A stretch of DNA of 24,000 bases, taken from NCBI GenBank assembly GCA_030018135.1, contig JASEGJ010000010.1, forward strand, positions 13,283 to 37,282. The letters run 5' to 3'. The notes beneath the pieces were generated by a model, which made no database searches, was not told where the DNA came from, and worked only from the letters and a program-made list of their open reading frames with translations. A program made the translations under genes and the position numbers. Origin of the DNA: Candidatus Hodarchaeaceae archaeon (GTDB taxonomy: Archaea; Hadarchaeota; Hadarchaeia; Hadarchaeales; Hadarchaeaceae). Positions 3,119 to 23,884 of this stretch are shown in pieces (position 1 is the stretch's first letter; every line of letters begins with the position of its first letter).

Positions 3119-3257
3119 CTCCAGTCCTCCAACGGTTCAATAACGCTTACTGGTTTAAGTAAGTTTTGAAGTTAGGGCAGTCAGTTATAAACAATTCAGC
3201 AACCAAAATCATTTGGAAATGTAGAGTAAAGTTCGGATGACCTTAGCACTAGCGAGC

Positions 3258-3265
3258 TATTTAAT
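3258..3265 (+). promoter_or_regulatory. TATA-like box for tRNA-Gln(UUG)
   Basis: TATTTAAT lies about 26-33 nt upstream of tRNA position 1 (3291). Confidence 0.45.
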
Positions 3266-3290
3266 CGTGGGGAATCAAAACTTAAAGGGT

Positions 3291-3425
3291 AGCCCCGTGG
3301 GGTAGACCAGTAAAGCTGGGCCTAATGGTCAGGGTTCAAAGCCCCCATAAAAGCCTTCGGGCCTTTGGAGCCCGTGACCCCGGTTCGAAATCGGCCAGCC
3401 GACGAAGTTCCGGGCGGGGCTACCA
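3291..3425 (+). tRNA. tRNA-Gln (anticodon UUG) with three non-canonical introns and genomically encoded CCA
   Basis: Acceptor AGCCCCG/CGGGGCT (A1-U72), then A and CCA. Anticodon arm CGGGC-CTTTGGA-GCCCG at 3358-3374, anticodon TTG at 3365-3367. T stem CCCGG 3379-3383 / CCGGG 3410-3414. A 73-nt cloverleaf needs removal of about 3306-3325, 3332-3351 and 3390-3408. Confidence 0.8.
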
Positions 3426-3426
3426 T

Positions 3427-3621
3427 TTTTGTTAAGTAGTCTTGAGAAGTCGGATCGCCGAAGGACGTGGGGCAATTATCGCTTTTTAGCCGCTTTATTG
3501 CCTCCTTAAGGGCGTTTTCCGCGACCCGTGAAATGTTCAGGCCCGCATCCTTCGCTTCCTTCAAGATAGCAGGATCAAGGGTGATTGCGGTTATCTGGCG
3601 CTTTCGGTTTGGTCCCTTCAT
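3427..3621 (-). CDS. Candidate int(N): N-terminal ~65-aa fragment of a partitioned SSV-type integrase (alternatively a separate small ribbon-helix-helix-like protein)
   Basis: ORF 3322..3621 starts MKGPNRKRQITAITLDPAILKEAKDAGLNISRVAENALKEAIKRLK. It then reads through the tRNA 3' half as MVAPPGTSSAGRFRTGVTGSKG. That is the same phase as GRIRTGVAGSKG at the N terminus of the recombinase ORF at 5050..5940. Confidence 0.45.
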
Positions 3622-3915
3622 GTATATACACTCCTATGCACTCTCAGCCTCTTCAAGCACTTCTTTCAATCTCCTAGATATAATCCCCTTGATGTTTTCC
3701 ATACTCTGCTCCTCCGCGAGGCGGCAAAGTTGTTCTATTCGCTCAGGAGACAACTTGCGGCCCCGCCCTCGCCTGCTCGATGCTGCACACTATTAAAAAC
3801 CACTTTGCCAACCGAGACAGTGCATCGCCCATATTAAACCACGCGACATAAAAACTCGGCGCGATCTTTTTTTAGATTTTTAAGGAAATAAAAAAAGAGA
3901 GTTTGGGGCCCTAGG

Positions 3916-4392
3916 ATGGACTGGAGAGAATTTCTTCCTGTACATGAGTATAAAGCGTGGGTCGAAGACGCTCGAGATAAATTGGAGGAAGCGAAGAAGG
4001 ATCTAGATGACTTTCCTTTTAGTGCCTTTCAACGGGCCCATGAATCTGCCGAATTTTTATTAAAAGCCGTTTTGGTCCGTGCGGGCAAATTCGGTAGAAA
4101 AAATCGAATCCACCAATTACCACCGCTTCTGGATAAGATAGATCGCGAAAAATGCCTTCCACCCGGAGCGATTACTAAAGCACGAGAAATTGTGCCAGAA
4201 CTCGAGATTATAAATGTGGGCGGCCCGCGACCAGCCCCTACGCATGTCGACTCCATTACATACACAGCCGAGGTTGAATATCCGAAGGCAGGAATGTCTT
4301 CTACCGATCGAATATCAAAGGAAATGGCTGAGGAAAAAATATGTTTGTCACAACAACTGCTTGAATTATTACTTCCTTATTTGGACTGTTAA
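3916..4392 (+). CDS. HEPN-domain protein
   Basis: 158-aa ORF, helical. HEPN-like segment AHESAEFLLKAVL followed by an R-x4-H motif (GRKNRIHQL). AT-rich TATA-like sequence upstream (3870-3895). Confidence 0.7.
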   Translation: MDWREFLPVHEYKAWVEDARDKLEEAKKDLDDFPFSAFQRAHESAEFLLKAVLVRAGKFGRKNRIHQLPPLLDKIDREKCLPPGAITKAREIVPELEIINVGGPRPAPTHVDSITYTAEVEYPKAGMSSTDRISKEMAEEKICLSQQLLELLLPYLDC

Positions 4393-4402
4393 ATTGGCGC
4401 TG

Positions 4403-4687
4403 TTAACTTTTCTTTTTCCTCAACAATCTTCTTATTTGCTCTTCCTGTCTATTGTACCATTTATCAAAGAGCAGATACCCAAAGGGTAAATGAATGCCAA
4501 AGATTCCGAGTCCTCAGAAAATTAGGGGCCAGTGAAACCATATCTTTTCCGGCACAACTACGAGGTTGTAAACTGGAAAAATAACTGCGTTGAAAACCAA
4601 GTATATCACGAGATGGCAAAGGAAACCTTTTTTTGCTTCTCTCTTTTCCACAACTCTTCTCGCTTCTCTGTAATCCTTCACACTCAT
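4403..4687 (-). pseudogene. 2TM-domain small membrane protein interrupted by an in-frame TGA (4514-4516)
   Basis: My translation: MSVKDYREARRVVEKREAKKGFLCHLVIYLVFNAVIFPVYNLVVVPEKIWFHWPLIF-TGA-GLGIFGIHLPFGYLLFDKWYNRQEEQIRRLLRKKKS*. The TGA sits where this family usually has Trp (W-G-x-G-L). Below the ORF-track size cutoff. Confidence 0.5.
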
Positions 4688-4973
4688 TTTTTCACATCCA
4701 TCGGTGTGATATTGCTTCCTTAAAAGGTTGATGGAGGTATTAAGTTAACACCTATGTGAATCGCGAGGTTTTTTATTCATTTCGGTTTTCTCACTATCAC
4801 CTCATCGGTTTTGGGCATGATTGCATACACCTATCCGCGGTCTTTCGCCGCAATATAGTTTTTCGCTCGGGGCCCTCAATCAAACCCACGCGGTCAAAGC
4901 CGCAATTGAATTCCCGAGGTGCCCCTGCCCCTTTTGTTTCTCCCTTTGATGGTTGTGGGAGCATGATATTCAC

Positions 4974-5003
4974 CCGCCTCTCATCGAATAGTTTGAGAGG
5001 CGG
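4974..5003. repeat. Inverted repeat (9-bp stem, 12-nt loop) downstream of the integrase stop
   Basis: CCGCCTCTC (4974-4982) / GAGAGGCGG (4995-5003). Confidence 0.4.
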
Positions 5004-5049
5004 ATCCCTTAAAGCCGAGCGATTCATCATCCTATCAGCACCGTTAAAT

Positions 5050-5940
5050 TTACGAGAGAACTTTTAACCCCGCGCCATCGTATATCCTCTTTAACCGTTC
5101 GGGAGAGAAGTCCGTGTAATGCCTCGCCAGCACGCTCCTCGGAACCCGCCCACAGAAGGCATCGACGTATCTGTCTGCAACGCCCAACTCGCCCATCTCG
5201 GAGCAGAACCAGTCGCGCAAAATCTGGGGCGTGATCTTAACGCCCGATGCCTCGCTCGCCCGCTTGAACCACCTATCAATTCGACTACTCCGCCACGGAA
5301 AGAGCCTTTGGTCGGCGCTCACGTCCCGCCCGTTGAGGTATTCTCTCAGCGCTTGCTCCGCTTCTCGGTTGAAAAATGACGCCCATCTTTTCTTTGTTAT
5401 TGTGCTTGTTACGTTTGGCAGCACCATTCTCTTGTCAAGGTCGATGTCGCCTATCTTGAGCGATGCGACCTCATCTCGCCTAAGCCCCGATGTGGCGAGC
5501 ATCAGGAACACCGCACGTTCAAATGGCCTTTTGAGCGCTTCGTAAAATCGCTTCAACTCTTCCTTGGTCGGCACCCTTTTCGGCTTGAACTCTTGGCGCG
5601 GTAATTTGAACGTCGCCACTATTTCGCCTCTGCCCAAGAAGTCGCGGAAAAATCTTCTAAATGCTTTAAGAATGTTGGCGCGAGTCGAGGCGCTTGAATC
5701 CTTAAAGCCCGCGAGATAATCTCTAATAACATCGGTCGAAACTTCAGCGCCGTTTAACCATCTCAAGAATCGTTTAATTTCACGACAATGATCTTGGGCG
5801 GTGGCCTCGGACAGCGATAGGTCGATCGTGCAAAATTTCTTGAACTTCTCCAAAACATCAGGATCGAACGTTATGCCTTTGGAGCCCGCGACGCCGGTTC
5901 GAATCCGGCCGGGGCTACTAAATTTTAGGAAAAGTCGCAT
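5050..5940 (-). CDS. Tyrosine recombinase/integrase, C-terminal catalytic part (int(C) of an SSV-type partitioned integrase)
   Basis: 296-aa ORF. N-terminal residues SSPGRIRTGVAGSKG are the translated tRNA 3' half. SAM-like core-binding region present. Catalytic-type residues ATSGLRRDE (Arg), ILRDW (the xxR Arg) and C-terminal VLARHYTD (Tyr). The ATG at 5940 lies outside the repeat, so it is probably fortuitous. Confidence 0.85.
   Translation of the reverse strand: MRLFLKFSSPGRIRTGVAGSKGITFDPDVLEKFKKFCTIDLSLSEATAQDHCREIKRFLRWLNGAEVSTDVIRDYLAGFKDSSASTRANILKAFRRFFRDFLGRGEIVATFKLPRQEFKPKRVPTKEELKRFYEALKRPFERAVFLMLATSGLRRDEVASLKIGDIDLDKRMVLPNVTSTITKKRWASFFNREAEQALREYLNGRDVSADQRLFPWRSSRIDRWFKRASEASGVKITPQILRDWFCSEMGELGVADRYVDAFCGRVPRSVLARHYTDFSPERLKRIYDGAGLKVLS
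5875..5917 (+). other. Intron-less partial copy of the tRNA-Gln(UUG) 3' half (right att repeat)
   Basis: GCCTTTGGAGCCCGCGACGCCGGTTCGAATCCGGCCGGGGCTA: anticodon loop to discriminator, canonical T arm GCCGG-TTCGAAT-CCGGC, no 5' half, followed by CTA instead of CCA. Confidence 0.8.
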
Positions 5941-6279: not shown

Positions 6280-6966
6280 CTATACCAACATCAATTCGAC
6301 CAATTCGTGGAGGTTTTTAGCCCGCCTTACCTCAATGCCGGGCGCCCTTGGCACGCCGGTTTGATTGGAGGCCACGATGAAAACTTTAAAGCCGGCCTCC
6401 TCGGCGACGCGCAGTTTCACGTCGATCTCCCCGACAGGTCCGAGCCTGCCGTACCCGTCCAAGGTCGCGCTGACGATCGCATCTCGGCGCACTTCCCTAT
6501 TTTCGATCGCGGCGACCAACACGACCCCCATCGCGCCGCCAGCTGATGGGCCGGCGATGACCTCGACATCCGCCTCGATGGAGAAGACGACATCCGCTGA
6601 GGAGAGGTCAAAACCCGTCTCCCGCTCGGCGGCCAGTTTGGCGTTCCTAGCGGACTTCTGGGTGTCCTCGTTCTCGTAGGGCGGCACGCTGATGAGCACC
6701 CGTCCCTTGCCCAAGCCAAGCTCGACGGTAAGCGTTGCCAGCCTCCCCTCCCCCCGCCCCTGCTTGACGACGCCCACGATCGCCGTGGAGCGCGCGCTGA
6801 CCCCGCCCTCCGCAAGCTCCAAGGGAGGTCTCGTGGCGTACCAGCTGGAGGCGAGCGTGCCGCCGAGGCAAAGGCCTATCAAGAAGGCGGCGACTAAAAG
6901 GCCCTTCAAACTCGACCCTTTTGCCCGGTGCAGCTCAAGCTGGTCCATGAGGCTCATGCGGGTCAC
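6280..6966 (-). CDS. Membrane-anchored Lon-protease-like S16 proteolytic domain protein (no ATPase domain)
   Basis: 228-aa ORF. N-terminal TM helix (LLVAAFLIGLCLGG), Lon catalytic-serine motif IAGPSAGGAM, downstream Lys (DVKLRVAEEAGFK). Confidence 0.75.
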   Translation of the reverse strand: MTRMSLMDQLELHRAKGSSLKGLLVAAFLIGLCLGGTLASSWYATRPPLELAEGGVSARSTAIVGVVKQGRGEGRLATLTVELGLGKGRVLISVPPYENEDTQKSARNAKLAAERETGFDLSSADVVFSIEADVEVIAGPSAGGAMGVVLVAAIENREVRRDAIVSATLDGYGRLGPVGEIDVKLRVAEEAGFKVFIVASNQTGVPRAPGIEVRRAKNLHELVELMLV

Positions 6967-10697: not shown

Positions 10698-11777
10698 TCA
10701 GAGCGGCACAAACGTGGTCTCCAGTCGATCATGGGTTGGATATTCCTCGACTATGGCAAACTTTAGATTTGGCTCGAGCTTGGCCAGCTCTTCCGCGATG
10801 TACCAGGCCGTCTCGAGCCTGCATTTTTTTCTATCGACTGCCATTAGCTCGGCGGGGATGTCATAGCGCCTGATCAATCGCCTTCTCGTGGCCCTCAGCT
10901 CTGCTGCCGGCAGGTCGTAGATGATGCCCTTTATCAGCAACCCATCCTCGTTGATGACATCGTAGGGCATCGCGACATTTTTCGCCCTCCGCTTGAGCCT
11001 GTTGCGCAACTGCACGCCGTCCTTGAGCGCGCTTGGGCAGTAGTGGATGTTTAAGCGGGTGTTACGGGCCGCCCATTCAAGCACCCTTCGCGCGATCTCC
11101 TCGCTGCCCTTTACCGCCATCGATTCATCTGACTTGATCTTGAAACCTCTAGCCTTTAGCGCCGCGAGGTTCGTGTCGGAGAACTCCAGCTCGTTCAAAT
11201 TGACGAAGGGGCAACCGATGCGATCCAGTTCGCGAAGCAACGCGATGGTATGCCTAAATTTGCCCGGTACCGCGGGAATTTCGACGCCGGCGCGGAGCCC
11301 GGCCTCCAACGCCCTTTGAACGGGCTCGTGCGACCAAGTGTGGAATCTGAGCTCGTCGAGCCCCGCCAGACGCAACCTGTGCAATTGCTTCGAGGACAGC
11401 TCGCCCCCCACGTACATGTGGACGTGATGACGTTTGCCGAACCTCCGCTTGAGGAGCCGAAGGTAGCGAAGGGCTCGTCCTAGCCGCAGGGATGGGTCGC
11501 CCCCAGTTAGGCCGGTGCCAAGCGCATCGATGAGTTCGGCTTCCTCGACGATATCTCGCTGAGACCTGACCGGGCGCTCGTTGGCGTAGATGACATCCTT
11601 GCCGCGGCGCCTATCCGATAGCGGGCAATAAAAGCAGCCACGGGTGCAGAGCCCGGTGACAAACAGCACCAGCTTAGCGCCGCGTATGCAAAGTCGGCAG
11701 CCCTTTGGCATTCTTCCAAGCAGGATCGAGTTCGCGGGGGTGCGGACGACTCGGCGGCGCTGGTCACTCGCCCTCAT
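10698..11777 (-). CDS. Radical SAM protein (PflA-related, COG2108-like, function unknown)
   Basis: 359-aa ORF with CTRGCFYC (CxxxCxxC) after MPKGCRLCIRGAKLVLFVTG. Its ATG (11777-11775) lies 14 nt inside the end of moaE. Confidence 0.8.
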   Translation of the reverse strand: MRASDQRRRVVRTPANSILLGRMPKGCRLCIRGAKLVLFVTGLCTRGCFYCPLSDRRRGKDVIYANERPVRSQRDIVEEAELIDALGTGLTGGDPSLRLGRALRYLRLLKRRFGKRHHVHMYVGGELSSKQLHRLRLAGLDELRFHTWSHEPVQRALEAGLRAGVEIPAVPGKFRHTIALLRELDRIGCPFVNLNELEFSDTNLAALKARGFKIKSDESMAVKGSEEIARRVLEWAARNTRLNIHYCPSALKDGVQLRNRLKRRAKNVAMPYDVINEDGLLIKGIIYDLPAAELRATRRRLIRRYDIPAELMAVDRKKCRLETAWYIAEELAKLEPNLKFAIVEEYPTHDRLETTFVPL

Positions 11778-12192
11778 GAACCCAGTACTCCCCGCTTTCC
11801 GTGACTTCCTTCTTCCATATCGGCACCTCCGTTTTTATGCGGTTCATGATCTTTTGGAGCGCGGAGAATACGTCGGATCGGTGCCTGCCACCCACGATGA
11901 CATAAATGGCGTCATCCCCGGGCGTCAGGTCATCGATGATGTGGTGGATCATCACCCTCGAAATTTTCGGGTCCTTTTCCACATCCCTGGCTATTTGTTC
12001 GAGCTTTTTCACGGCATCCTCAGAGCACTCGTAGTGGAGTCGCTTCACCTCCTCGCCATCCTTCGACACATGCCTGACCACGCCGATGAAACAACCTATC
12101 GCGCCAACGTTCCCCCTGAGATCTTGCCTGAACTCTTCCAACAGCTTGGGCAGGTCAAGTTCGCCTTTCCGGTGGATCCCAACGTCGGCCAT
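11764..12192 (-). CDS. moaE: Molybdopterin synthase catalytic subunit MoaE
   Basis: MoaE-type sequence with the C-terminal VPIWKKE motif. ATG at 12192 preferred over the TTG at 12204. Confidence 0.9.
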   Translation of the reverse strand: MADVGIHRKGELDLPKLLEEFRQDLRGNVGAIGCFIGVVRHVSKDGEEVKRLHYECSEDAVKKLEQIARDVEKDPKISRVMIHHIIDDLTPGDDAIYVIVGGRHRSDVFSALQKIMNRIKTEVPIWKKEVTESGEYWVHEGE

Positions 12193-12260
12193 TGTTAGCC
12201 CCAATGGAACTAGTTCGTCCAGTTAAAATTAGCCTCCGACCAAGTTTTAGAAGTATATCG

Positions 12261-13277
12261 CTAAATGCCTTTGCAAACGGGGCAGTTTGGATCCCGGCGA
12301 ACTTCGATTACGTCGAACGTCATGTCCTCCCCGTTAAAGAACAGCATTTGTCCGACGAGCGGTTTGCCTATGCCCACGATGAGCTTGATAGCCTCCATCG
12401 CCTGAAGGCAGCCGATCGCGCCCGGCGTCGGACCCAGTACTGGGAAGGCGGGTTTCATGGGCGGTTCCCTCGGAATGATGCATCTCAAACACGGCCCCTT
12501 GCCCGGCAGGACGGTCGCGAGCTGGCCGATGAGCCCCTCGACGGCGCCGTGCACGAATGGCACGCGGTTGCGCACGCAGGCTTCGTTCAACAGGTAGCGC
12601 GTTGGATAGTTGTCCATGCCATCGATGACGACATCGGCGTCCTTGATGAGGGCACCCACATTTTTGTTCGTTATGACGTCGAGCTTGCTGTCTATTTCCA
12701 CGCTCGGGTTCATGGCAAACAACTTTTCGATCGCAGACCCAGCTTTTGACCGACCCACGTCGAGATGCCAATGCAGTATCTGGCGGTTGAGATTGCTGAG
12801 TTCGACTCGTTCAGCGTCGAGGATTGTCAGGTGCCCAACGCCGGCAGCGACCAAGTATACCGAGGCGGGACTGCCGAGGCCCCCCAAGCCAGCCACGAGC
12901 ACGTGCGCGGCCTTCAGCTTTCGCTGTCCCTCCTTGCCAAATCCGCGAATCATCATCTGCCGATTGTAGCGCTCGAGTTCCTCCGGCGTGAACGATGCTC
13001 CGCCCGATACCGGCGGAAAGATCGCCACGATGTCGCCATCTTTTAGCCCCGTCTTCAACCCGCTGAGCAGGTTTATGCCGCGGCCGTTCACCAGAATGTG
13101 GACGGTATCGCGCAGCTTTCCAGTCCTTGGCTCATAGAGTTGTTCAGCTAGCCTTTCCCCAAACTTACGGACGAGCTCCTCGAGCAGGGAAGCTACATCC
13201 TCTACGCCATCGATGTCCTCTTGTTCCTTCCCAACGGCCTCGCGGAAGTTCGCGAAGAACTTCACCTTGATAGCCAA
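12261..13277 (-). CDS. Fusion protein: MoaD/ThiS-type ubiquitin-like domain ending in Gly-Gly (aa 1-93), joined to a MoeB/ThiF/UbaA-type E1-like adenylyltransferase (aa 94-338)
   Basis: N terminus MAIKVKFFANFRE..DIVAIFPPVSGG (GG codons 13004-12999). It continues directly into ASFTPEELERYNRQ..VLVAGLGGLGSP..LSNLNRQ (E1 nucleotide-binding motifs) and the CLRC..CPVC zinc motif. TTG start. Confidence 0.9.
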   Translation of the reverse strand: MAIKVKFFANFREAVGKEQEDIDGVEDVASLLEELVRKFGERLAEQLYEPRTGKLRDTVHILVNGRGINLLSGLKTGLKDGDIVAIFPPVSGGASFTPEELERYNRQMMIRGFGKEGQRKLKAAHVLVAGLGGLGSPASVYLVAAGVGHLTILDAERVELSNLNRQILHWHLDVGRSKAGSAIEKLFAMNPSVEIDSKLDVITNKNVGALIKDADVVIDGMDNYPTRYLLNEACVRNRVPFVHGAVEGLIGQLATVLPGKGPCLRCIIPREPPMKPAFPVLGPTPGAIGCLQAMEAIKLIVGIGKPLVGQMLFFNGEDMTFDVIEVRRDPNCPVCKGI

Positions 13278-13560
13278 TGTGCCACCAGCCCACGGTTGGG
13301 TTCGATCAATTATAAGTTTAGAGGGTAGGGTTTTCGGCAGTCATGTTAATGAAACAGTGGTCGGCGGGGGCTGGGGAATGCCTATATTTACCTATCGGTA
13401 AAGGGTTGTCCGAGGGGGAGCATAGATGTCGGCGCGAGGCTTCTCGGGCATAAAAATTTCAGCTTCGTGTGGAAGGTTCAAGCGGGATCGAGTAGCATCG
13501 CGCTTAAGACGAAGAGGCTATGGCCAAGAGATCCCCCGCGGGGCATAGGAGGGGTGGAAA

Positions 13561-14103
13561 ATGGCAGGGGTAAAAACACAAATTCAAAACATAGTGCTGT
13601 CCGTCACCTACGAGGGCATAGAGTTCAACCTCGAGAAGCTGGCGAAGTCCCTGGACGGGGCGAGGTACGACCCGGAGGTCTTTCCGGGCATAGCGTATAA
13701 GTCGGAGGATCCTTCGGCGTCATTTCTCATCTTCTCATCGGGCAAGATGAACTGCGTCGGCGCAAGAAGCATGAACGACGCCAGGCAGGCGATAAAGAAG
13801 CTGACGAAGAAGCTCAGAAAGGCCAGCGTCAAGGTAAAATCCGAGCCGAAGGTCGAGGTTCAAAATATGGTCGCTTCCTTTGACTTCGGAAGGGAGTTCG
13901 ACCTCGAGCGAATCGCACGAAGTTTTGAGAACACCGAGTACGAGCCCGAGGTCTTTCCGGGGCTCGTCTTCAGGCTCGACGATCCTCCTGTCGTAGTGCT
14001 GCTATTCGTGTCGGGGAAGGGCGTCTGCGCTGGCGCTAAGAGCATGAGGGACGTAAAAAAGGCGGCACAAAAGATAACTAAATTACTTTCCCGCCGAGCA
14101 TAG
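13561..14103 (+). CDS. tbp: TATA-box-binding protein
   Basis: 180-aa ORF with the two TBP direct repeats (IQNIVLSV..YDPEVFPGIAYK..FSSGKMNCVGARS and VQNMVASF..YEPEVFPGLVFR..FVSGKGVCAGAKS). GGAGGGG upstream. Confidence 0.95.
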   Translation: MAGVKTQIQNIVLSVTYEGIEFNLEKLAKSLDGARYDPEVFPGIAYKSEDPSASFLIFSSGKMNCVGARSMNDARQAIKKLTKKLRKASVKVKSEPKVEVQNMVASFDFGREFDLERIARSFENTEYEPEVFPGLVFRLDDPPVVVLLFVSGKGVCAGAKSMRDVKKAAQKITKLLSRRA

Positions 14104-14138
14104 TGGCCCAGTTTGCCCCGCAGCTCCCACAGAATTTT

Positions 14139-14151
14139 ATAACAACGTTAT
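14139..14151. promoter_or_regulatory. Palindromic operator candidate ATAAC-N3-GTTAT (site a1), abutting a TTTATAAG TATA box
   Basis: ATAACAACGTTAT, immediately followed by ATTTATAAG. Confidence 0.6.
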
Positions 14152-14178
14152 ATTTATAAGGGGGGGGTTTATCGAAGT

Positions 14179-14191
14179 ATAACGGTGTGAT
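14179..14191. promoter_or_regulatory. Second, one-mismatch copy of the operator candidate (site a2)
   Basis: ATAACGGTGTGAT, 40 nt downstream of site a1, between the TATA box and the SD/ATG of the micro-ORF. Confidence 0.4.
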
Positions 14192-14206
14192 AGAGGAGGT
14201 AATCCA

Positions 14207-14236
14207 ATGAGGAATAGCCTTTGCGCCTGCTGCTGA
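14207..14236 (+). CDS. 9-codon Cys-rich micro-ORF (MRNSLCACC)
   Basis: ATG is preceded at 6-7 nt by GAGGAGGT, among the strongest SD-like sites I saw in the window. Sits downstream of a TATA box plus two operator-like palindromes. Translation unproven. Confidence 0.3.
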   Translation: MRNSLCACC

Positions 14237-14242
14237 TGCGTC

Positions 14243-14265
14243 GGGAGATAGGCCTTTTTCCTCCC
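14243..14265 (+). terminator. Hairpin with embedded T5 tract after the micro-ORF (possible bidirectional terminator, also for hypC)
   Basis: GGGAG (14243-14247) pairs with CTCCC (14261-14265). The loop contains TTTTT (14255-14259). CTCC is also complementary to the upstream GGAG of the SD. Confidence 0.4.
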
Positions 14266-14296
14266 AATTACCATCAACCGAAAACGAATTGTGTTC

Positions 14297-15091
14297 CTAA
14301 TCTGTTTCTACCATATATCTCTTCAGTTTCTCAGCGAGTTCGGCGGGAAGTGGCATAGATTCCATGAGCGTCGTATCCGTACAAACGGAAACGGTCGAGC
14401 ACTCGGCCACCACTTTACCCGACGTGAGATTTTTGATGACATTTCTGAACTTTATGTGCTTCCGTCCAACCTCTTCCACCCAGACCGCGACCTCGATCAT
14501 GTTGTCCAATCTGACTGGCCCAAGTATCCTGCCCGAGGTCTCCACGGTTGGGACAAACAGGCCAAACTTGTGGATTAACGCGGCATAGCTGAAACCGAGG
14601 CCCTCGAGAAGCTCCTGCTGCGCCCGCTCGCAGAACCTAAAGTAGTTCGTGTAGTGCATGACTTGTAGGTAGTCCGTGTCCGAGAGGGAGACCTTATAAG
14701 ATCTCTTGAAAGCGTTGCTGGGTATGAAAATTTCCTTCTCAGCGACTGCCATGGGTTCCGCTACCTCCGGCTCGATACTTGCTATCGACCCACGGACCCC
14801 TAAAGAATTCAGCAATTTATCCGTTTCATCCGTGGCCTTTTCTTTCGCCGCTTTTTCGTCGAGCCCAGCATCCAGCAGTTCCTGTGTGCGGATGTCCCGG
14901 TACAATGCCACATTTTCCATGAAATCTTCTGGGCTGAGCTTACCTATTATCATGCCGGCGTGGATCATGACCAAGTCACCGGACGAGATCCCGCTCGCCG
15001 CCACGACGACCTCTTTCTTAACTCCGCCGAAATCCACGAGGGCTGTGGGACCATCGAGGCTAAGGATTTTTGCTGGAACGCCCCAACACAT
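14297..15091 (-). CDS. hypC: HypC (hydrogenase maturation chaperone) fused to a C-terminal hotdog-fold 4HBT/YbgC-type acyl-CoA thioesterase domain
   Basis: N terminus MCWGVPAKILSLDG..ALVDFGGVKKEV..GDLVMIHAGMIIGKL is canonical HypC (Met-Cys start at 15091, 1 nt after the hypD stop). After a Lys/Glu-rich linker comes YKVSLSDTDYLQVMHYTNYFRFCERAQQELLEGLGFSY.., matching the 4HBT thioesterase pattern. Single uninterrupted ORF. Confidence 0.85.
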   Translation of the reverse strand: MCWGVPAKILSLDGPTALVDFGGVKKEVVVAASGISSGDLVMIHAGMIIGKLSPEDFMENVALYRDIRTQELLDAGLDEKAAKEKATDETDKLLNSLGVRGSIASIEPEVAEPMAVAEKEIFIPSNAFKRSYKVSLSDTDYLQVMHYTNYFRFCERAQQELLEGLGFSYAALIHKFGLFVPTVETSGRILGPVRLDNMIEVAVWVEEVGRKHIKFRNVIKNLTSGKVVAECSTVSVCTDTTLMESMPLPAELAEKLKRYMVETD

Positions 15092-15092
15092 G

Positions 15093-16340
15093 TTAGCCAT
15101 CTCCCGATCGTGCCTCGGATTTAACCGAACTCATCTCGCTGTACCTGGCCCAGATAGCGCATGCCCCCTCCGAGGATACCATACATGGCCCCCACGGGTT
15201 CAGCGGGGAGCAGCCCTTCATGAAGAGGGGGCAGTCCGCGGGCTTAGCTATGCCGACGATGACCTCGCCGCACCTACACCTTGGAGGGAGGTCGTGCTCC
15301 CATGGGACGCCGTGGTGCGCATGGGTGTAAATAAATTCCTTCGGGGTCAAATCCGGCACGTCGAAGTGTTTCAATGCATCATGCTTTTCGAAAAATTCCC
15401 CTTTGAGCTTGAGCCCGCTTCGGGGGATGAATCCGAGACCCCTCCAAGCCGCATATGCCCTTTCAAAGACCTCGTCAATCAATTTCTTCGCGTATTCGTT
15501 CCCTCCCCATTTCACGAGCCGCTTGTACTCTATCTTTACCGCGGGTCTGTTCTCCTTTATCATCAGGAGTATCTGGGCCACCGCCATCAGGACGTCGATC
15601 GGCTCAAACCCTGCGACCACGGTGGGCAAACCGTGCACCCGCGGAAGGAACTCCCACTCCGCCGCGCCGATTATGGTTGAGACGTGGCCTGGCGCTATAA
15701 CCCCCCTTATCGGCAACAACCCGCGCTCTTGGTGGATCTTGACAGTGTACTTCATCGATGGCGGGGTCAACCTCATTACGTTAAGGAATTTTAGGTCCTC
15801 CGAAACCATTCCCCTCGTCAGCGTCAACGCGTAACTGGGGGCCGTCGTCTCGAACCCTATGCCGAAAAACACGCTCTCTTTTCCTTGCTCACGCGAGTCC
15901 CTTGCCGCATCGAGGAAGCTATAAACGACTTTGACATCGCCGCCATCCACCTTAACTTCTTGGAGGCTGGCAGGGCATCCGGCCTTTGCGCTGCGAAGTC
16001 TCAGCGAGTCGCCATAGGTGTAAATCCTGATGCCTTCCCGCGCGAGTTTTACTGCGACATCGACATAGTACGAGGGGACAACGCACACGGGGCAACCTGG
16101 TCCAGCCACCATGTCCAAGAAAGGAGGAAGGAGGTCCCTCAGGCCGTAGTAGGTTGTGGTCCATTCGTGGGTGCCGCAGAAGTTCATTATCTTGATCGCG
16201 TCGCATTTCTCCCTCTCCCTGATCGCGCTAGCGTACTTCCATATGGTGTCCCTAAGCTTCGACGCTAGCGGTAGGTTCTGCCTGAACACTTGTCTTATGA
16301 GTTCCCGGTCATCGAGCTGACTTTTCAAGTACCGCACCAT
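15093..16340 (-). CDS. hypD: [NiFe]-hydrogenase maturation protein HypD
   Basis: 415-aa ORF with the motifs FCGTHE, GPGCPVCV and a C-terminal Cys cluster (PRCRCGEV..DCPLF..GPCMVSSEGAC). Confidence 0.95.
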   Translation of the reverse strand: MVRYLKSQLDDRELIRQVFRQNLPLASKLRDTIWKYASAIREREKCDAIKIMNFCGTHEWTTTYYGLRDLLPPFLDMVAGPGCPVCVVPSYYVDVAVKLAREGIRIYTYGDSLRLRSAKAGCPASLQEVKVDGGDVKVVYSFLDAARDSREQGKESVFFGIGFETTAPSYALTLTRGMVSEDLKFLNVMRLTPPSMKYTVKIHQERGLLPIRGVIAPGHVSTIIGAAEWEFLPRVHGLPTVVAGFEPIDVLMAVAQILLMIKENRPAVKIEYKRLVKWGGNEYAKKLIDEVFERAYAAWRGLGFIPRSGLKLKGEFFEKHDALKHFDVPDLTPKEFIYTHAHHGVPWEHDLPPRCRCGEVIVGIAKPADCPLFMKGCSPLNPWGPCMVSSEGACAIWARYSEMSSVKSEARSGDG

Positions 16341-16421
16341 CCCGCTATCAAATCATGTCTTTAACTATTTAGGCAACGGAAAAAAATTCAGTTTTCCGCA
16401 ATGCGGTGCCAATGCTGTTAT

Positions 16422-16763
16422 TCAAACCTTATCCGCTTCGAGCAATAGTCGGAGATCCTCATCCTTTAGGTCTGCCCTATGATATACTCTGACCAAGTAA
16501 GCTACCCGATCCGCAACCGATGACTCAACGCCTAGTTCACCCAAGATTTTTCGTGCAAGCTTTGAGCCTTTTCGGCAGTGGATTTCCATCTTTGAATTCT
16601 GGTCTTGAATGTTGCCCACAAATCCCCCTCGGTATGGAAGGGAGTAACCAATATCATGGAGGTAAGCGGCTGCGATGAGCAACTGCTTGTTGAGCGTCGA
16701 TGTTTTAAGGAGCCTTTTCACGTTCGCGACTACCTTCGCTGTATGCTCGTAGTACCTAGGCAC
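16422..16763 (-). CDS. HD-domain protein (possibly N-terminally truncated)
   Basis: 113-aa ORF with AAYLHDIGY (HD motif) and an upstream His (YYEHTAKV). GTG start directly after an in-frame TGA. Confidence 0.6.
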   Translation of the reverse strand: MPRYYEHTAKVVANVKRLLKTSTLNKQLLIAAAYLHDIGYSLPYRGGFVGNIQDQNSKMEIHCRKGSKLARKILGELGVESSVADRVAYLVRVYHRADLKDEDLRLLLEADKV

Positions 16764-17165
16764 GCTGTTCTCGAATATCTCCTTAACCCTTTGGTCCAGC
16801 TTCGTTTCAAGAGCCCGCAGCCATCTAGATGCTCTGCCTGTCGAACTCGTGCTTCATAAATTTTCAAATTTGTCATTTGAGCTTGCTGAGGAAGAGGTCA
16901 TCCTGAGCTTGTTCATTAGGTCCTCATACGTCATCCTGTCTACCAAGCTCCAGTTGAACTCCTCTGCCTCCCTGAACTCCAAACGCAGCGCGTTATATGG
17001 ACATGCGGGGGACATGCGGCGTGCGATGTCCCCAAGCTTTCTAGCTCCCCTTTGACCTGACTGAAATTTTCAGCTGCATTGGCTTTTTCGACTACTTGGT
17101 CCAGTTCGCCCCAACTTCTGCAGTATTACCTCGTGTTCCTCCTTCAGTATCTGAATTGGGTGCAT
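16764..17165 (-). pseudogene. Decayed coding region (hemerythrin/DUF438-like N terminus followed by multiple frame breaks)
   Basis: ATG at 17165 gives MHPIQILKEEHEVILQKLG... Protein-like sequence then continues only by switching frames (..LDQVVEKANAAENFSQVKGELESL.., ..EFREAEEFNWSLVDRMTYEDLMNKL..). Lower GC than the neighbours. Confidence 0.3.
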
Positions 17166-19206: not shown

Positions 19207-20427
19207 TCATTCAACCCCGATGTCGTATGACCTAGCTATTTCGTGAAATGCATCCGCGACCTTTTGAAGTTGATCTCGGTTCAGGCCGTAAGTGTTTAAT
19301 TTTATCAGCTTGGTCATCCCTGGATGTATGCCGGATATCTTCCTCTTTTTAAGTTCCTCGTGGAGGAAGAACCCGCGCCGTTCATGTTTTTTGGCGACCC
19401 TGTGGAAGGATGGGGTTTCGAAGCTGACGAGGGTGTGCCGCCTCGGCCGTTCGCCAAGTTGGTGGAAGTCCTTGATGCGTTCTAATTCTTTTACCAACCA
19501 CCTGATTTTCTCCACCTCCTCCTCCCAGCGCTTCACTCGCCCGACGACGTGCGGGAAGCTCGCCATTAGCGTCGCGATTGGCGCCCCGAACACTGGCGGA
19601 CATCCGAAGAGGAAGACCTCTTTTTTAGCGAAGGCACGGCCGCTCCAAGGACCTTTGATCGTCGAAGTTCTGAAAACCTTATCTGCGAACTCATAGGTTG
19701 TTGCTAAAATTCCTATTGGCCCAGATGCAGCCCAAGATTTATGCCCGCTACCCACCAGAAAATCTGCCTGCAACTTTTTGCCGTCTACAGGCATAACGCC
19801 CGCCGTGTACGCGGCATTCAAGATGAAAGGTACACCGTAACTCTTAGCTATTTTTCCAACCGCAGCTGCTTCAGCGAGGTTCCCGTAGCGGTAGTCGGCA
19901 TGCGTTAGAAGTACCGACGCCGGGAGCTCACCCGTTTCTCGCTTGACCTCATCGATTTTTACCGCATAGTCGTCTGCCTTTATCTTGAACTCGGGATAAC
20001 CGCTGTGCGGCACCTCGACTATCTTGAGGCCGTTGAGCTCAGCTGCGATGTAAGTGGTGTAATGAGCAAGCGAGTCGATCACTACCATGTCACCAGGCTC
20101 AGTTATTGCCTTGAAAATCGCATTTTTTGCGCCCCTTGCGCCTGGTGTGAAGTTGACCTCGTCCATGTTCAAAAACTTGGCCACATCGTCGGCGAAGTCG
20201 AATATGGGCGGTTTTTTCACCAGGTCAACGCGACCCTCTAAACAATAATCGCAGACGCTGTAGCCGTCGGCGAATGAGAGCAGGGTCTCGCGGGTTTCCG
20301 GGGGCAGTATTCCTCCCCTTTGAATCGGGTGTAAATTGATCCAACTCTCGTCGACCTCTCGGCGGAGGTTTTTGTATATGTCGAGATTTATTTCTCTCAC
20401 CCTATCGTCCCCAAGAAACTGTCCCAC
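19207..20427 (-). CDS. pscS: O-phosphoseryl-tRNA(Cys):Cys-tRNA synthase (SepCysS)
   Basis: 406-aa ORF. INLHPIQRGG, GYSVCDYC, PLP-lysine motif VGSGHKSWAASGPIG, MASFPHV..RVKRWEEEV, closely matching SepCysS as I recall it from Archaeoglobus and methanogens. Start is GTG 20427, or possibly GTG 20400. Confidence 0.9.
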   Translation of the reverse strand: MGQFLGDDRVREINLDIYKNLRREVDESWINLHPIQRGGILPPETRETLLSFADGYSVCDYCLEGRVDLVKKPPIFDFADDVAKFLNMDEVNFTPGARGAKNAIFKAITEPGDMVVIDSLAHYTTYIAAELNGLKIVEVPHSGYPEFKIKADDYAVKIDEVKRETGELPASVLLTHADYRYGNLAEAAAVGKIAKSYGVPFILNAAYTAGVMPVDGKKLQADFLVGSGHKSWAASGPIGILATTYEFADKVFRTSTIKGPWSGRAFAKKEVFLFGCPPVFGAPIATLMASFPHVVGRVKRWEEEVEKIRWLVKELERIKDFHQLGERPRRHTLVSFETPSFHRVAKKHERRGFFLHEELKKRKISGIHPGMTKLIKLNTYGLNRDQLQKVADAFHEIARSYDIGVE

Positions 20428-20434
20428 GAACTTA

Positions 20435-20447
20435 ATAACTGTGTTAT
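20435..20447. promoter_or_regulatory. Palindromic operator candidate ATAAC-N3-GTTAT (site b) between SepCysS and the tusA-like gene
   Basis: ATAACTGTGTTAT. Flanked by TTA.. and ..GTTAAATAT (TATA-like on the SepCysS strand). Overlaps the tusA-like ATG. Confidence 0.6.
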
Positions 20448-20700
20448 GTTAAATATCCTTTATCGAAAGCAAGGGTCGGCTCGAAAAATCGATATCCGGG
20501 GCGATGTTTGCCCTTACACATTCGTGAAGTCGAAGCTCGCGCTGGAGGACATGGAGGGCGGCTAGGTGCTCGAGATCATCGTCGACCACGCGCCTGCCGT
20601 CGAAAACGTCCCGAGGAGCTTGACCAACGAAGGGCATAAGGTGCTCGAGGTTAGACAGGTTGGGGAAAGCGAGTGGAAGATCGTCGTGAGGAAGGCTTAG
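20446..20700 (+). pseudogene. tusA: TusA/SirA-family sulfur-carrier protein interrupted by an in-frame TAG (20563-20565)
   Basis: My translation: MLNILYRKQGSARKIDIRGDVCPYTFVKSKLALEDMEGG-TAG-VLEIIVDHAPAVENVPRSLTNEGHKVLEVRQVGESEWKIVVRKA*. Conserved CP(x)P-type active Cys present. The TAG aligns with the Glu of the usual G-E-x-L-x-V motif. Not in the ORF track because it is split. Confidence 0.7.
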
Positions 20701-20727
20701 CGAACCTTTATTTCAAGTTCCTCAATT

Positions 20728-21114
20728 CTACCACCCTTGCAAATGTAGGCCCTTCTTTCTCTGATTTTTTTCCTTCGTCGCGCCTACGATTAGCCACGCC
20801 ACGTCGGGCCATAGAGCCAAGAACTCCGCGTCCCTGCCGCTCACGTGGGCGCTGGCATTTGGGTGGGAGTGATAGATGCCGATGAGCGCCAGCCCCCTTG
20901 ACTCGGCTTCCACGATGGCATTGTAGACGAATTCCGCGTCTATTTCGAAGATTGTCGCCGATTCCTCGATATTTTCGGCCGAAATTACATCCTCGACATT
21001 TAGGTCCGCGTTCGCCCGCTCCCCCACCAATAGACCACAACATTCCACGGGGAAGCACTTCAGCGAATGCTCATCGATCGCGCGCAGGTCCTCTTTTTGG
21101 ATCTTGAGCCTCAT
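20728..21114 (-). CDS. JAMM/MPN+ metalloprotease (stand-alone, Mec+/QbsD/HvJAMM-like)
   Basis: 128-aa ORF with the complete JAMM motif: Glu in PVECCGLLVG, then HSHPNASAHVSGRD (H-x-H-x7-S-x2-D). Confidence 0.9.
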   Translation of the reverse strand: MRLKIQKEDLRAIDEHSLKCFPVECCGLLVGERANADLNVEDVISAENIEESATIFEIDAEFVYNAIVEAESRGLALIGIYHSHPNASAHVSGRDAEFLALWPDVAWLIVGATKEKNQRKKGLHLQGW

Positions 21115-21335: not shown

Positions 21336-22001
21336 ATGAGGGAAAAGGTCGTGTGCTTGGTCTCAGGGGGCATAGATTCCCCGGTCGCCTGCGCCTTGGC
21401 CGCTAGTAGGTTCGAGGTTTTGCCGCTTCACTTCTGCCTTTACCCCTACACGTGCGAGGAGACATTCCTCGTGGCGATGGAGGTGCTGAAGGATCTCAGG
21501 AAAAAGGCCAAGTTCAAGAAGGTCATCGTCTACCCCTGGGCGAGGATTTTGGACGCCATCCTGAAGTATCGGGAAAAGAGGAGCTACGCTTGCCTCGCGT
21601 GCAGGAAGAGCATGTTTGAGGTCGCCGAATCCATCTGCGAGCGGGAGGGGGCGGCGGGAATAGTAACGGGGGAGTCGCTCGGGCAGAAGGCGACTCAGAC
21701 GTTGACGAACCTTGGTGTGACCTCCCGGGGGATCAAATTTCCGATCTTCAGGCCCTTGCTCGGCTTGGACAAGGAGGAGATAGAGGGGATCTCCAAGCGG
21801 ATGGGCATCTGGCACGAGGTACACGCCGGCTGTTGCTTCGCCACCCCGAGGTACCCGCGGACGAGGGCTGAGCTCGAGGTGCTCGACAAGTTCCTCGAGG
21901 ACCTAAGGATTCGAGAGGCGATTCAGCGGGGTTTTGAGGGGATTTTGGAGGTCCGCACCTTCGAGGAGGACTTCAAGGGCTACCTCGAGGCACTCGCATA
22001 G
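21336..22001 (+). CDS. ThiI-like PP-loop ATPase/sulfurtransferase lacking the N-terminal ferredoxin-like and THUMP domains
   Basis: 221-aa ORF starting directly with the PP-loop (VVCLVSGGIDSPVA). ThiI-type TGESLGQKATQTLTNL and RPLLGLDKEEI. Cys motif CLAC plus a later GCC. Confidence 0.8.
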   Translation: MREKVVCLVSGGIDSPVACALAASRFEVLPLHFCLYPYTCEETFLVAMEVLKDLRKKAKFKKVIVYPWARILDAILKYREKRSYACLACRKSMFEVAESICEREGAAGIVTGESLGQKATQTLTNLGVTSRGIKFPIFRPLLGLDKEEIEGISKRMGIWHEVHAGCCFATPRYPRTRAELEVLDKFLEDLRIREAIQRGFEGILEVRTFEEDFKGYLEALA

Positions 22002-22059
22002 TTCTGGGCCCTGCGATGACACTTTTGGTCGTCGACAGGGTGTTGACAAACCTTGGCGT

Positions 22060-22907
22060 TCACCTGAGCTTTTCCAAGATCGCGTGATGCCTCTCGCAGA
22101 ATTCGTGTTCCTTCGGGCCGAGTTGGGCTAGGATGACCTCCTCCTGCCAATGGCCATTAAAGAGCCGACACTTCCTGTCGGGGCAAAACGGCTCGAGCAT
22201 GAGGTGATGGAAGATAGCCTGCATCACATACCCCTTCATCACCTCCGTGAGCCTATCGTCGTCGTAATCGATGAACCTGCCCTTGAACCTCTCCTTCAAC
22301 GCCTCTATGGGCACACCGCTCATCCCCAGCGCCGCGTATCGCTGCTTGAGTAGGTAGAACTCCTTGGGCTTGGCGGGCGCCTCGACGATACCAGTGGTGG
22401 AGATGATGGAAGGGAGGCCGTAGACGCTCACGCGCGCGTGGTATCTCCGGTCTCCCTCGTCGAAAGTGGCGAAGAAGCGGTTCGTGAAGATAATGTGAGC
22501 ATGCTCGATGCTGAACTCGTCAGTTGGCAGAATTTCCCGGAGCAGCGCTTGGAGCTTGAATCCATCGTAGAGCACCCCAGTGAGCCTGAGGCTGGGGTCG
22601 CGAAGGAGCTTACGCTCGAACTCGATTTCACCGGGGAGTGGCTCAAAGTGCGTGTCTGGGTTCGACGGGTCGCGGATCTTCGTCTTGGCCAGCTTCAGAG
22701 CTAGGGCTTCGATTTTATCCGGCGAAGTTGCTTAATGAAAGGTCCTCGCACCTCGACCGGGACCTTGCCAAATTTATCCTCCAGACAGCGGGCAATCTCA
22801 AACAGGTCGAGGGTCTTAGCTGAGAGGTCTTGGTACAAGTGGATGCTAGGCAAACGTTCGCTTATCACCGTTGAGTTGCTCATGTAGAGCACCACGTCTA
22901 TTTTCAA
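22060..22907 (-). pseudogene. Archaemetzincin-like (M54-like) protein without HExxH, apparently split by a frameshift near 22700-22712
   Basis: ORF 22701..22907 (MKIDVVLYMSN..FGKVPVEVRGPFIKQL) and ORF 22060..22575 are joined by a stop-free stretch in the second frame (DKIEALALKLAKTKIRDPSNPDTHFEPLPGEIEFERKLLRDPSLRLTG) that has no start codon. The C terminus has FHHLMLEPFCPDRKCRLFNGHW..FCERHH, where AmzA has HExxHxxGxxHC..C..C. Confidence 0.45.
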
Positions 22908-22988
22908 GCAGTTGTACTACTTTAAGCGCTCCACCATACGCTCCGAAGGAAAGGATGAAAAGCGATGTGCAAATGGTAACTTGATCTT

Positions 22989-23774
22989 CTATAACTCCTG
23001 TAACTTCTGATACGCGACTTCCGCTGCTCGCCGGCCGCTGATCAGCATCGAGCCGAAAGTTGGACCCATCCTCGGCAGGCCGTAGGCCGTCGTCACCGCC
23101 ATCCCCGCAACGATGAGGCCTGGGTAGACCTCCCCCGTATGCTCGACAACGAGATCCTCGGAGCGCTCGACCCACATGGCCCCGTAGCCCGGCACCCTGA
23201 TCAGGCCTCGCCGCTCGAGCAGGCGCACCACGGCCGCGTCGTGCCCCGTCGCATCGATCACGAGCTTGCTCTCCAGCCCGACCGGGTCAACGCATGTCAG
23301 CTCGCGGGGCAGCGTCGACACGGGGGTCCAGTTGATAACAACGCCTCCCACGCGGTTCTTCTCCCGAAGCACGATGTCGTCGATCAGCGCCATGTTGAGT
23401 ATCTTCGCGCCAGCGTCGCAGGCGGCGGCGATCAGCCTTGAGCAGGCGTGGGGACCATCGGCCACGTAAAGGCCCTTCGACGACTCTATGTAGGGGACCC
23501 TCAACTCATCGAGGATTTTTTGCGCTGGTGCTCGAATAGTAACCTTGTTGAGCAAAAACCCGCCGATCCAGAAACCCCCGCCTAGGTAGTTGTTCCGCTC
23601 GACGACGAGGGTGTTCACGCCTCGCTCCGCCAGCCCCTTTGCGGCCATCAGACCGCTCGGGCCGCCTCCGACCACTATCACATCGCTCTCGGCGTATTTT
23701 TGAAAATCCTTCATGAACTCGCCGACGATCGCCCTCGTTATTTCCTTTTCCCCCGCCGGTTCAAAGGCTACCAT
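22989..23774 (-). CDS. thi4: Thiamine thiazole synthase Thi4 (archaeal type)
   Basis: Dinucleotide-binding [52 protein letters not shown] at 23774 preferred over the GTG at 23783. Confidence 0.93.
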
Positions 23775-23884
23775 TTCCACCACCGTCCACCGCTGCTATT
23801 TTCAAATCAGCCAAATCCTCGCCCTCTTGGGTATTAAGTTTTTGTTTTTCAAAGATCTCCTCGCTCCCGCATCGCCTTATTTAT

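Follow-up and report, generated by a model that had tools for sequence, protein, structure and literature searches.

A MoaD-MoeB fusion of Hadarchaeota as a probable precursor of a ubiquitin-like sulfur carrier and its activating enzyme

Proteins in which a ubiquitin-like (Ubl) domain is joined to an E1-like activating enzyme have been described more than once. Ubl domains fused N-terminal to ThiF were reported by Iyer, Burroughs & Aravind (2006, PMC1779556), who also found ThiS-ThiF operons with a second, solo ThiS. Makarova & Koonin (2010, PMC2948915) count 'Ubl-E1-TBP in Thaumarchaeota' among fusions also present in bacteria, and a survey of 2024 (PMC11237513, cluster 356.1) gives MoaD-MoeB fusions in 61 of 98 Thaumarchaeota, in some Crenarchaeota, and also in Rokubacteria and NC10, together with MoaD-MoeBR fusions in Poseidoniales. 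Here we describe such a fusion in Hadarchaeota, encoded at positions 12261-13277 of a stretch of 24,000 nucleotides (the whole of which we call the window) from contig JASEGJ010000010.1 of assembly GCA_030018135.1. The architecture itself is thus already catalogued in other microbes; what is new is its presence in Hadarchaeota, a series of C-termini among related solo proteins and a neighbourhood that brings together a JAMM protease and SepCysS (the Sep-tRNA:Cys-tRNA synthase).

MoaD fusions need cleavage, since the C-terminus of MoaD must be free (PMC11237513), and several precedents for such processing exist. The JAMM protease DR0402 of D. radiodurans cleaves a MoaD-MoaE fusion (PMC8832034; PMC11237513 ref. 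122), HvJAMM1 of H. volcanii acts on SAMP1-MoaE (PMC4443979), MoaX of M. tuberculosis is active only after cleavage (PMC4326299), and a ubiquitin precursor is processed by CsRpn11 (PMC6043591). The MoaX, DR0402 (DRJAMM) and HvJAMM1 systems resemble the present case in that the Gly-Gly of MoaD is blocked by a fused partner from the same pathway and is exposed by a cut after Gly-Gly; the known cutting agent there is a small stand-alone JAMM/MPN+ protease. The partner differs: it is a synthase subunit in the MoaD-MoaE fusions and the activating enzyme here. In our literature search we found no experimental study of any MoaD-MoeB or ThiS-ThiF fusion, its cleavage included.

The gene and its two parts, with the ratio of nonsynonymous to synonymous substitution rates (dN/dS) for each part, are as follows.

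12261-13277, minus strand: MoaD-MoeB fusion open reading frame (ORF), 338 amino acids, TTG start, stop codon at 12261-12263
12999-13277, minus strand: MoaD/SAMP1-type beta-grasp domain, residues 1-93, ending AIFPPVSGG (Pfam ThiS, TIGR01687, dN/dS 0.11)
12264-12998, minus strand: MoeB/ThiF E1-like adenylyltransferase domain, residues 94-338 (Pfam ThiF, 1JW9_B alignment, Foldseek, dN/dS 0.08)

An earlier account of this DNA, made from its letters alone (the sequence-only reading), had described one uninterrupted ORF of 338 codons, in which a MoaD/ThiS domain ending FPPVSGG (Gly-Gly at residues 92-93) is followed directly by an adenylyltransferase. Both statements are borne out. The ORF listing gives a single reading frame with neither an internal stop nor a frame break, and Pfam, NCBIfam and the 1JW9_B alignment place the domains as described. 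The Pfam ThiS match runs over residues 5-93 and takes in the complete domain (profile positions 1-76 of 76, E 2.3e-15), and the ThiF match runs over residues 104-334 (E 6e-71). NCBIfam models of archaeal MoaD (TIGR01687, 84.8 bits, cutoff 49.5) and of SAMP1 (NF041918, 68.2 bits, cutoff 60) both recognize the MoaD part. Gly92-Gly93 are encoded by 12999-13004. Since residue 95 of the fusion is paired with residue 3 of E. coli MoeB when the two are aligned (1JW9_B, E 5e-51), the linker is effectively of zero length. The start position is common to the homologues, in which it is ATG (MAVTVKFF, MAITVKLF). The polypeptide therefore has the layout of a Ubl-E1 fusion, with ThiS N-terminal to ThiF and the junction at Gly-Gly. 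It lacks the free C-terminal Gly-Gly that is characteristic of MoaD, 245 residues coming after Gly93, and to judge from the sequence a free end would be attainable only through proteolysis. The tryptic peptide that spans the junction is DGDIVAIFPPVSGGASFTPEELER.

A search over 5.8 billion proteins in 90%-identity clusters returned 45 further clusters (64-92% identity, 318-365 amino acids), every one with ThiS and ThiF in a single protein, or 46 with that of the window; those fusion clusters that bear an organism name are labelled Hadesarchaea. At the DNA level, 19 distinct loci from independent assemblies (GTDB genomes and metagenomes) read IFPPV[SA]GG straight into the MoeB helix. Across the 46 aligned fused proteins, A85-I-F-P-P-V90, G92, G93, R103, Y104, R106 and Q107 are invariant. 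The dN/dS values (MoaD half 0.11, MoeB half 0.08) come from 26 unsaturated pairs by the method of Nei and Gojobori; both halves are functional and under purifying selection.

One might ask whether the single ORF is an artefact of sequencing or assembly, in which a lost stop codon or a frameshift has merged two separate genes. Such a view could draw on protein P0046 of Hadesarchaea DG-33-1, which is annotated as a ThiF protein of 253 amino acids beginning MFPPVSGG. However, the DNA at that place holds a fused ORF of 347 codons with a TTG start, so the annotation is a truncated gene model. Because the fusion recurs in 45 other clusters and in 19 DNA loci of independent assemblies, the artefact is excluded, its probability being negligible; the two-gene alternative that the sequence-only reading had kept in view, with a stop or frameshift at 12996-13004, goes with it.

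We also considered whether a free MoeB could be made from an internal start. The only in-frame Met codons (residues 108-109) come after the essential R103 and R106, they are replaced by Ile, Leu, Thr or His in other sequences, and the GGAGG-like sequence upstream of them is, by eye, too distant at about 22 nucleotides. As no in-frame Met near the junction is conserved, separate initiation of MoeB is unlikely. Family hidden Markov models (HMMs) detected no second MoaD/ThiS gene within the window (E <0.01), and an Rfam scan found no RNA families there.

How widely the architecture occurs, a question raised by the sequence-only reading, was followed with a HMMER search using residues 1-140, the best 150 representatives at 50% identity being inspected. 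At least 35 of them span the junction, and all ten that were examined carry ThiS and ThiF; the architecture thus extends to at least 35 further 50%-identity clusters and, as said above, is not new. Linkers at the distant junctions, which read AVGGG, SVAGG, AVAGG, SIGGG or AIAGG, are 0-25 residues long, and 14 of the 15 junctions listed retain GG, the exception being P0357. The Hadarchaeota protein shares with the catalogued MoaD-MoeB and Ubl-E1 fusions an N-terminal MoaD/ThiS domain joined through Gly-Gly to a ThiF-family adenylyltransferase in one ORF. It differs from them in its host, since we did not see Hadarchaeota named for the fusion in PMC2948915 or PMC11237513, and in its linker, which is zero here and 0-25 residues long elsewhere. 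It is also shorter than the thaumarchaeal-type proteins (338 as against about 440 amino acids), lacking their extra C-terminal extension. Identity to thaumarchaeal, Rokubacteria and NC10-type representatives is 35-47%, and the Hadarchaeota fusion may have arisen independently of theirs.

The ThiS-ThiF fusions of delta/epsilon-proteobacteria and Firmicutes are a further likeness, a Ubl being fused N-terminal to an E1 Rossmann domain. Their Ubl is described as distinct from ThiS and a second, solo ThiS is present (PMC1779556), which would point to an uncleaved accessory role. In contrast, the Hadarchaeota fusion has a bona fide MoaD, an invariant GG and no solo MoaD in its operon.

The E1 half shows the marks of its family, that is, a Rossmann nucleotide-binding fold, a GxGxxG loop, an N-terminal Arg finger and a catalytic Asp. 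Its invariant residues include the loop G130-L-G-G-L-G135, R103/R106, R165, K178 and D219/D222, as well as the CxxC pairs C263/C266 and C332/C335, the motif of a structural zinc site. We take R106 to be the equivalent of R14 of E. coli MoeB. The best Foldseek matches are 1ZUD and 1JW9, structures of ThiF and MoeB. The column of the crossover-loop Cys (Cys187 of E. coli MoeB) is a gap in the 1JW9_B alignment, Pfam finds no rhodanese domain in the fusion, and the UbaA equivalog of NCBIfam reaches 241.7 bits where the cutoff is 450, the MoeB equivalogs likewise falling under their cutoffs. The earlier description of a complete MoeB/ThiF/UbaA-type adenylyltransferase therefore stands as regards a complete ThiF domain, but on the gap, the missing rhodanese and the score the label of a full UbaA-type enzyme does not. 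A SAMP-like modifier function of the released domain, raised in the sequence-only reading, is on these grounds no more than a possibility. We read this half, from its residues, as an adenylation-only E1 that would depend on sulfide or an external persulfide carrier.

In the structure of MoeB with MoaD, each ATP site is reached by an N-terminal Arg that belongs to the opposite MoeB subunit, so that the fused MoaD might be pre-positioned on the partner MoeB subunit. An AlphaFold2 model of the fusion monomer, with the 46-sequence alignment as input, has two confident domains (mean predicted local distance difference test score, pLDDT, 76.6; predicted template modelling score, pTM, 0.67). The pLDDT is 75-94 across residues 1-89, the beta-grasp domain, and below 50 at the junction (residues 90-96) and in the crossover loop (254-283), so the segment between the two folded domains is predicted to be flexible or disordered. 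The sequence-only reading had also allowed for a cis mechanism not yet described. Nothing points to one: the junction is predicted to be flexible, and processing at Gly-Gly has precedents.

The residues that come after Gly-Gly in solo relatives of the MoaD domain are informative. Of the 120 homologues listed for a MoaD-domain query (42-77% identity), 60 stop exactly at GG and 31 have 1-5 extra, non-conserved residues (A, I, V, RS, TS, KVR, LRKI and others). A further 17 (L036 8617-8946; P0122-P0161) end in 13-16 residues left over from the extreme C-terminus of MoeB (…NKNCPVCKGV); one such tail, GVETRRNKNCPVCKGV, may be compared with the C-terminus of the window MoeB, IEVRRDPNCPVCKGI. Seven have other, longer tails, and in the remaining five the search motif is absent (one is cut short ahead of the C-terminus, three end at GG, and one has GG and a remnant-like tail). 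Twelve tails of 16 residues have a pairwise identity of 0.61, as against 0.90 for the MoaD part, and the CxxC is retained in only 8 of the 17 remnant tails. The 13-16-residue tails are products of in-frame deletions in which an ancestral fusion lost nearly all of its E1 half, and they are now decaying.

Over about 10 kb, the locus of one remnant-tailed MoaD, L036, shows synteny with the window, in the order TATA-binding protein (TBP), MoaD with tail, MoaE, radical SAM protein, hexapeptide transferase, PRC, RibD_C, TraB, AsnC, Lon_C and polyprenyl synthase; in L037 the order is TBP followed by MoaD (ending GGI) and MoaE. Because of the C-terminal series and the full synteny of L036, the residues after GG are dispensable or variable in this clade while GG is kept, and the fused E1 is dispensable in cis. 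One would expect such a pattern were all residues behind Gly93 taken off before the protein functions, and the series argues for routine trimming after GG. The proposition of the sequence-only reading that the GG carboxylate has to be freed, and that the fusion implies a cut after GG, gains support from the combination of an invariant GG with variable residues behind it.

The immediate neighbours of the fusion gene, and a gene for a probable user of the cofactor, are these.

11764-12204, minus strand: MoaE, catalytic subunit of molybdopterin synthase (Pfam MoaE, E 3.4e-25), 56 nucleotides downstream of the fusion
10698-11777, minus strand: radical SAM/DUF8061 protein, conserved third gene of the operon, overlapping the end of MoaE by 14 nucleotides
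13561-14103, plus strand: TBP, divergent from the fusion and a conserved neighbour (Pfam, synteny)
1313-3118, minus strand: aldehyde:ferredoxin oxidoreductase (AOR), tungstopterin- or molybdopterin-dependent (Pfam AFOR_N, AFOR_C)

MoaE had been placed 56 nucleotides downstream in the same operon, and this is confirmed by Pfam and by the 13 loci in which MoaE lies immediately downstream of the fusion. The TBP gene divergently upstream of the fusion indicates the archaeal origin of the window. In 14 loci including the window (type A), the arrangement is TBP, then fusion, MoaE and the radical SAM gene. The radical SAM/DUF8061 protein, always third after fusion and MoaE in these loci, matches no curated family; it may carry out an uncharacterised step of pterin or tungsten cofactor synthesis. 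The AOR is likely to consume the cofactor made with MoaD and MoaE.

Our preferred explanation, held with moderate confidence, is that the fusion is a precursor which is cut after Gly93, probably by a JAMM protease, to give a MoaD and a MoeB for molybdopterin or tungstopterin synthesis. E1-type adenylation requires a free Gly-Gly carboxylate, and hence an uncut fused MoaD cannot be a sulfur carrier. The gene product would consist of a 93-residue Ubl sulfur carrier of the MoaD/SAMP1 type and its own MoeB-type adenylyltransferase. Its flexible junction would be cut after Gly93, most likely by the JAMM/MPN+ protein encoded at 20728-21114, with release of MoaD-Gly-Gly-COOH and of a MoeB that starts at about Ala94. 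The dimeric MoeB would then adenylate the freed carboxylate of Gly93, and a thiocarboxylate would be formed with sulfide or a persulfide carrier; an outside source of this kind is proposed because the E1 half has neither a catalytic Cys nor a rhodanese domain. MoaD-COSH and MoaE would finally make molybdopterin or tungstopterin for enzymes such as the AOR of the window. The fusion as such probably does no more than secure production of carrier and activator in a 1:1 ratio. Taken from the sequences, the cleavage itself is very likely and, if there is cleavage, the JAMM protein is rather likely to be the cutting enzyme.

The genes at the candidate protease are the following.

20728-21114, minus strand: stand-alone JAMM/MPN+ metalloprotease of 128 amino acids, candidate for cleavage after Gly-Gly (Prok-JAB, E 1.2e-16)
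19207-20427, minus strand: SepCysS (TIGR02539, 513 bits, cutoff 365), the next gene downstream of JAMM
20446-20700, plus strand: ORF of a TusA-family sulfurtransferase in the 300-nucleotide gap between JAMM and SepCysS, with an in-frame TAG at 20563-20565

The stand-alone JAMM protease of the sequence-only reading is real and, as a candidate processing enzyme, reasonable. It matches PfJAMM1 (5LDA, E 3.7e-11), its active-site motif HSHPNASAHVSGRD is intact (E24...H82-S-H84-x7-S92-x2-D95), and HxHx7SxxD is kept in all six JAMM ORFs that the family HMM found in five distinct loci. Scored within 10 kb of the fusion, JAMM genes occur in five of the ten fused loci with good flanks (the window with its duplicate L039, L007, L009, L010 and L011), and in L007, L010 and L011 the distance is about 1.2 kb. 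The neighbourhood supports JAMM as a putative partner of the MoaD-type Ubl. The adjoining TusA ORF would score 83 bits on Pfam PF01206 if read through, the TAG standing at a position that is Gln in a bacterial homologue; the sole other copy, in L039, is 100% identical and probably represents the same data. This interrupted ORF could be a pseudogene, an error or a case of read-through.

A second arrangement (type B; L005, L007, L010 and L011) consists of HcyBio(COG1900)-CBS, NIL-ferredoxin, a COG2122/AbpE-like gene, the fusion and, directly after it, a SepCysS homologue; in three of these four loci (L007, L010, L011) a convergent JAMM gene comes after SepCysS. L006 combines type A with type B, and in L038 a solo MoaD (GGKVR) occupies the slot that the fusion has in type B. 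DG-33-1 and L041 each have an additional E1 next to an additional SepCysS, as well as another Ubl with GG as its end, and unfused MoeB adjoins SepCysS in L013 and lies near it in L002. On TIGR02539, the SepCysS proteins of L005 and L040 score 526 bits and that of L042 scores 411. In all, SepCysS of Hadarchaeota is found near JAMM, MoeB-type E1s, MoaD-type Ubls and COG1900/NIL-ferredoxin/COG2122 in at least five arrangements (window 19207-21114; L005, L007, L009-L011, L013, L040-L043), and several Hadarchaeota genomes have two SepCysS paralogues.

A number of observations weigh against our explanation. Some related genomes encode another Ubl whose last residues are exactly GG (L041 7508-7921, and L042), and this one could serve MoaE instead. 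The distant fusion P0357 has no GG pair, and ThiS-ThiF fusions come with a solo ThiS (PMC1779556); uncleaved Ubl-E1 fusions therefore exist. Four loci have the fusion in the homocysteine/SepCysS operon with no MoaE nearby, so that molybdopterin synthesis may not be its sole or main role. No JAMM gene is present within +/-10 kb of the fusion in L001/L042, L005, L006, L008 and L041, and the JAMM protein scores 59.3 bits against the NCBIfam desampylase cutoff of 130, so that it is at most a putative orthologue of HvJAMM1. Each JAMM gene found adjoins SepCysS, not MoaE, and the only loci that have JAMM near the fusion gene are those of type B, a hint that the role of JAMM may be wider than, or different from, processing of the fusion.

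From these points two other explanations can be built. The fusion might never be cleaved, the beta-grasp part being built into the E1 as a module of structural, regulatory or pseudo-substrate function, with a separate free Ubl as the sulfur carrier of MoaE. The solo ThiS of the ThiS-ThiF operons, P0357 and the GG-ended Ubl near the fusion in L041 and L042 would all suit such an arrangement. Nevertheless, we think it quite improbable: GG and the six residues before it are invariant in the 46 fused sequences, and the dN/dS of the MoaD half is low; the same MoaD stands alone directly upstream of MoaE in the syntenic L036 and L037 after deletion of the E1 half; and neither the MoaE operon nor the rest of the window has any MoaD-family ORF besides the fusion. 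Alternatively, the cut after Gly93 might be made by a peptidase other than JAMM, such as the DUF6775 protein (22060-22575) or the Lon_C-like protein (6280-6966), or by autocatalysis. The five fused loci without a JAMM gene, the same absence within +/-10 kb of all three loci of tailed solo MoaD (L036-L038), the score of the JAMM protein below the desampylase cutoff and the recurrence of DUF6775 in the same sulfur neighbourhood fit this possibility, yet it seems unlikely. Only JAMM/MPN+ enzymes have been shown to cut after Gly-Gly of the MoaD/SAMP/CysO type (PMC4443979, PMC8832034, PMC6043591), and in three loci no more than 1.2 kb separates JAMM from the fusion; moreover, the literature ties DUF6775 to Thi4 and not to Ubls (bioRxiv 10.1101/2025.09.23.678117), and an autoproteolytic motif is not evident.

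A further possibility is compatible with cleavage by JAMM and concerns the use of the product. By analogy, the released Ubl might mainly be a thiocarboxylate sulfur donor to SepCysS and to COG1900 homocysteine synthesis, with JAMM maturing the precursor and hydrolysing Ubl-amino-acid adducts. Speaking for this are the type-B operon with its JAMM, the solo tailed MoaD in the same slot of L038, the JAMM-SepCysS pairs in the window and L009, the group MoeB2-SepCysS2-Ubl2 in L041 and L042, and the unfused MoeB genes of L013 and L002. All of this is gene neighbourhood, however; the fusion of the window belongs to a MoaE operon and is 6 kb away from SepCysS; according to the summary in PMC5764234, SepCysS and COG1900 reportedly use enzyme persulfides; and 'a few sulfur metabolism genes' near SepCysS of Hadesarchaea/MSBL1 had already been noted by Mukai et al. 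(PMC5424206). We regard this as a doubtful, if interesting, possibility. A broader version, in which Ubl, E1 and JAMM of Hadarchaeota would form a thiocarboxylate sulfur-delivery module for SepCysS and for COG1900/NIL-ferredoxin/COG2122 homocysteine synthesis, alongside molybdopterin synthesis, JAMM both freeing the Ubl and hydrolysing adducts, is slightly more speculative still.

Comparable systems are known. In CysO/MoeZ/CysM/Mec+ of M. tuberculosis (PMC3227635), Ubl, E1 and JAMM genes adjoin sulfur enzymes of cysteine synthesis, and in HcyS/HcyF/MetY/HcyD of Wolinella (Krishnamoorthy & Begley 2011, as cited in PMC5764234) they adjoin homocysteine enzymes. The Ubl of both systems has a C-terminal extension, which JAMM removes. 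The neighbours here are SepCysS and COG1900/NIL-ferredoxin/COG2122 instead of CysM or MetY, and the putative coupling is drawn from gene order. COG1900/NIL-ferredoxin/COG2122 is described, in that same paper, as a homocysteine pathway of anaerobes that co-evolves with SepCysS. Our literature search gave nothing that links SepCysS to ubiquitin-like carriers; SepCysS and 'thiocarboxylate' are mentioned together in a single paper, without connection.

The fusion alone, a new phylum for a catalogued architecture, is of modest interest. The zero linker and the invariant GG, taken with the series from GG end through short tail and remnant to full fusion, amount to a natural substrate panel for the maturation of archaeal Ubl precursors. 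The repeated placement of Ubl, E1 and JAMM beside SepCysS and COG1900 genes offers a testable candidate for the sulfur donor of anaerobic cysteine and homocysteine pathways. If true, the thiocarboxylate module would name the physiological sulfur donor of SepCysS.

Several minor observations may be added. The NCBI record of P0383, which is identical to the product of 20728-21114, names 'Candidatus Hodarchaeaceae archaeon' (Asgard), while its relatives and the synteny are those of Hadarchaeota/Hadesarchaea; the name is probably a labelling slip. At 21336-23783 there is a cluster of a ThiI-like PP-loop ATPase, DUF6775/DUF7001 ('probable metallopeptidase') and Thi4, seen in L005 too, which fits the reported association of Thi4 with DUF6775 (bioRxiv 10.1101/2025.09.23.678117). 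Upstream of HypD, at 14297-15100 on the minus strand, one protein combines a HypC hydrogenase chaperone (residues 4-66) with a thioesterase domain of the 4HBT type (residues 137-259); HypC of L005 is a stand-alone protein of 103 amino acids. The region 1313-5940, between the polyprenyl synthase and the Lon_C-like gene, holds the AOR, a HEPN-domain gene (3916-4392) and a tyrosine integrase (5050-5940), and the syntenic L036 has different genes in the equivalent slot; the region may be an integrated element. Finally, in L006 a gene for a sulfatase/Ig-like protein of 1,924 amino acids (11213-16987) lies between fusion and MoaE and interrupts the otherwise conserved operon.

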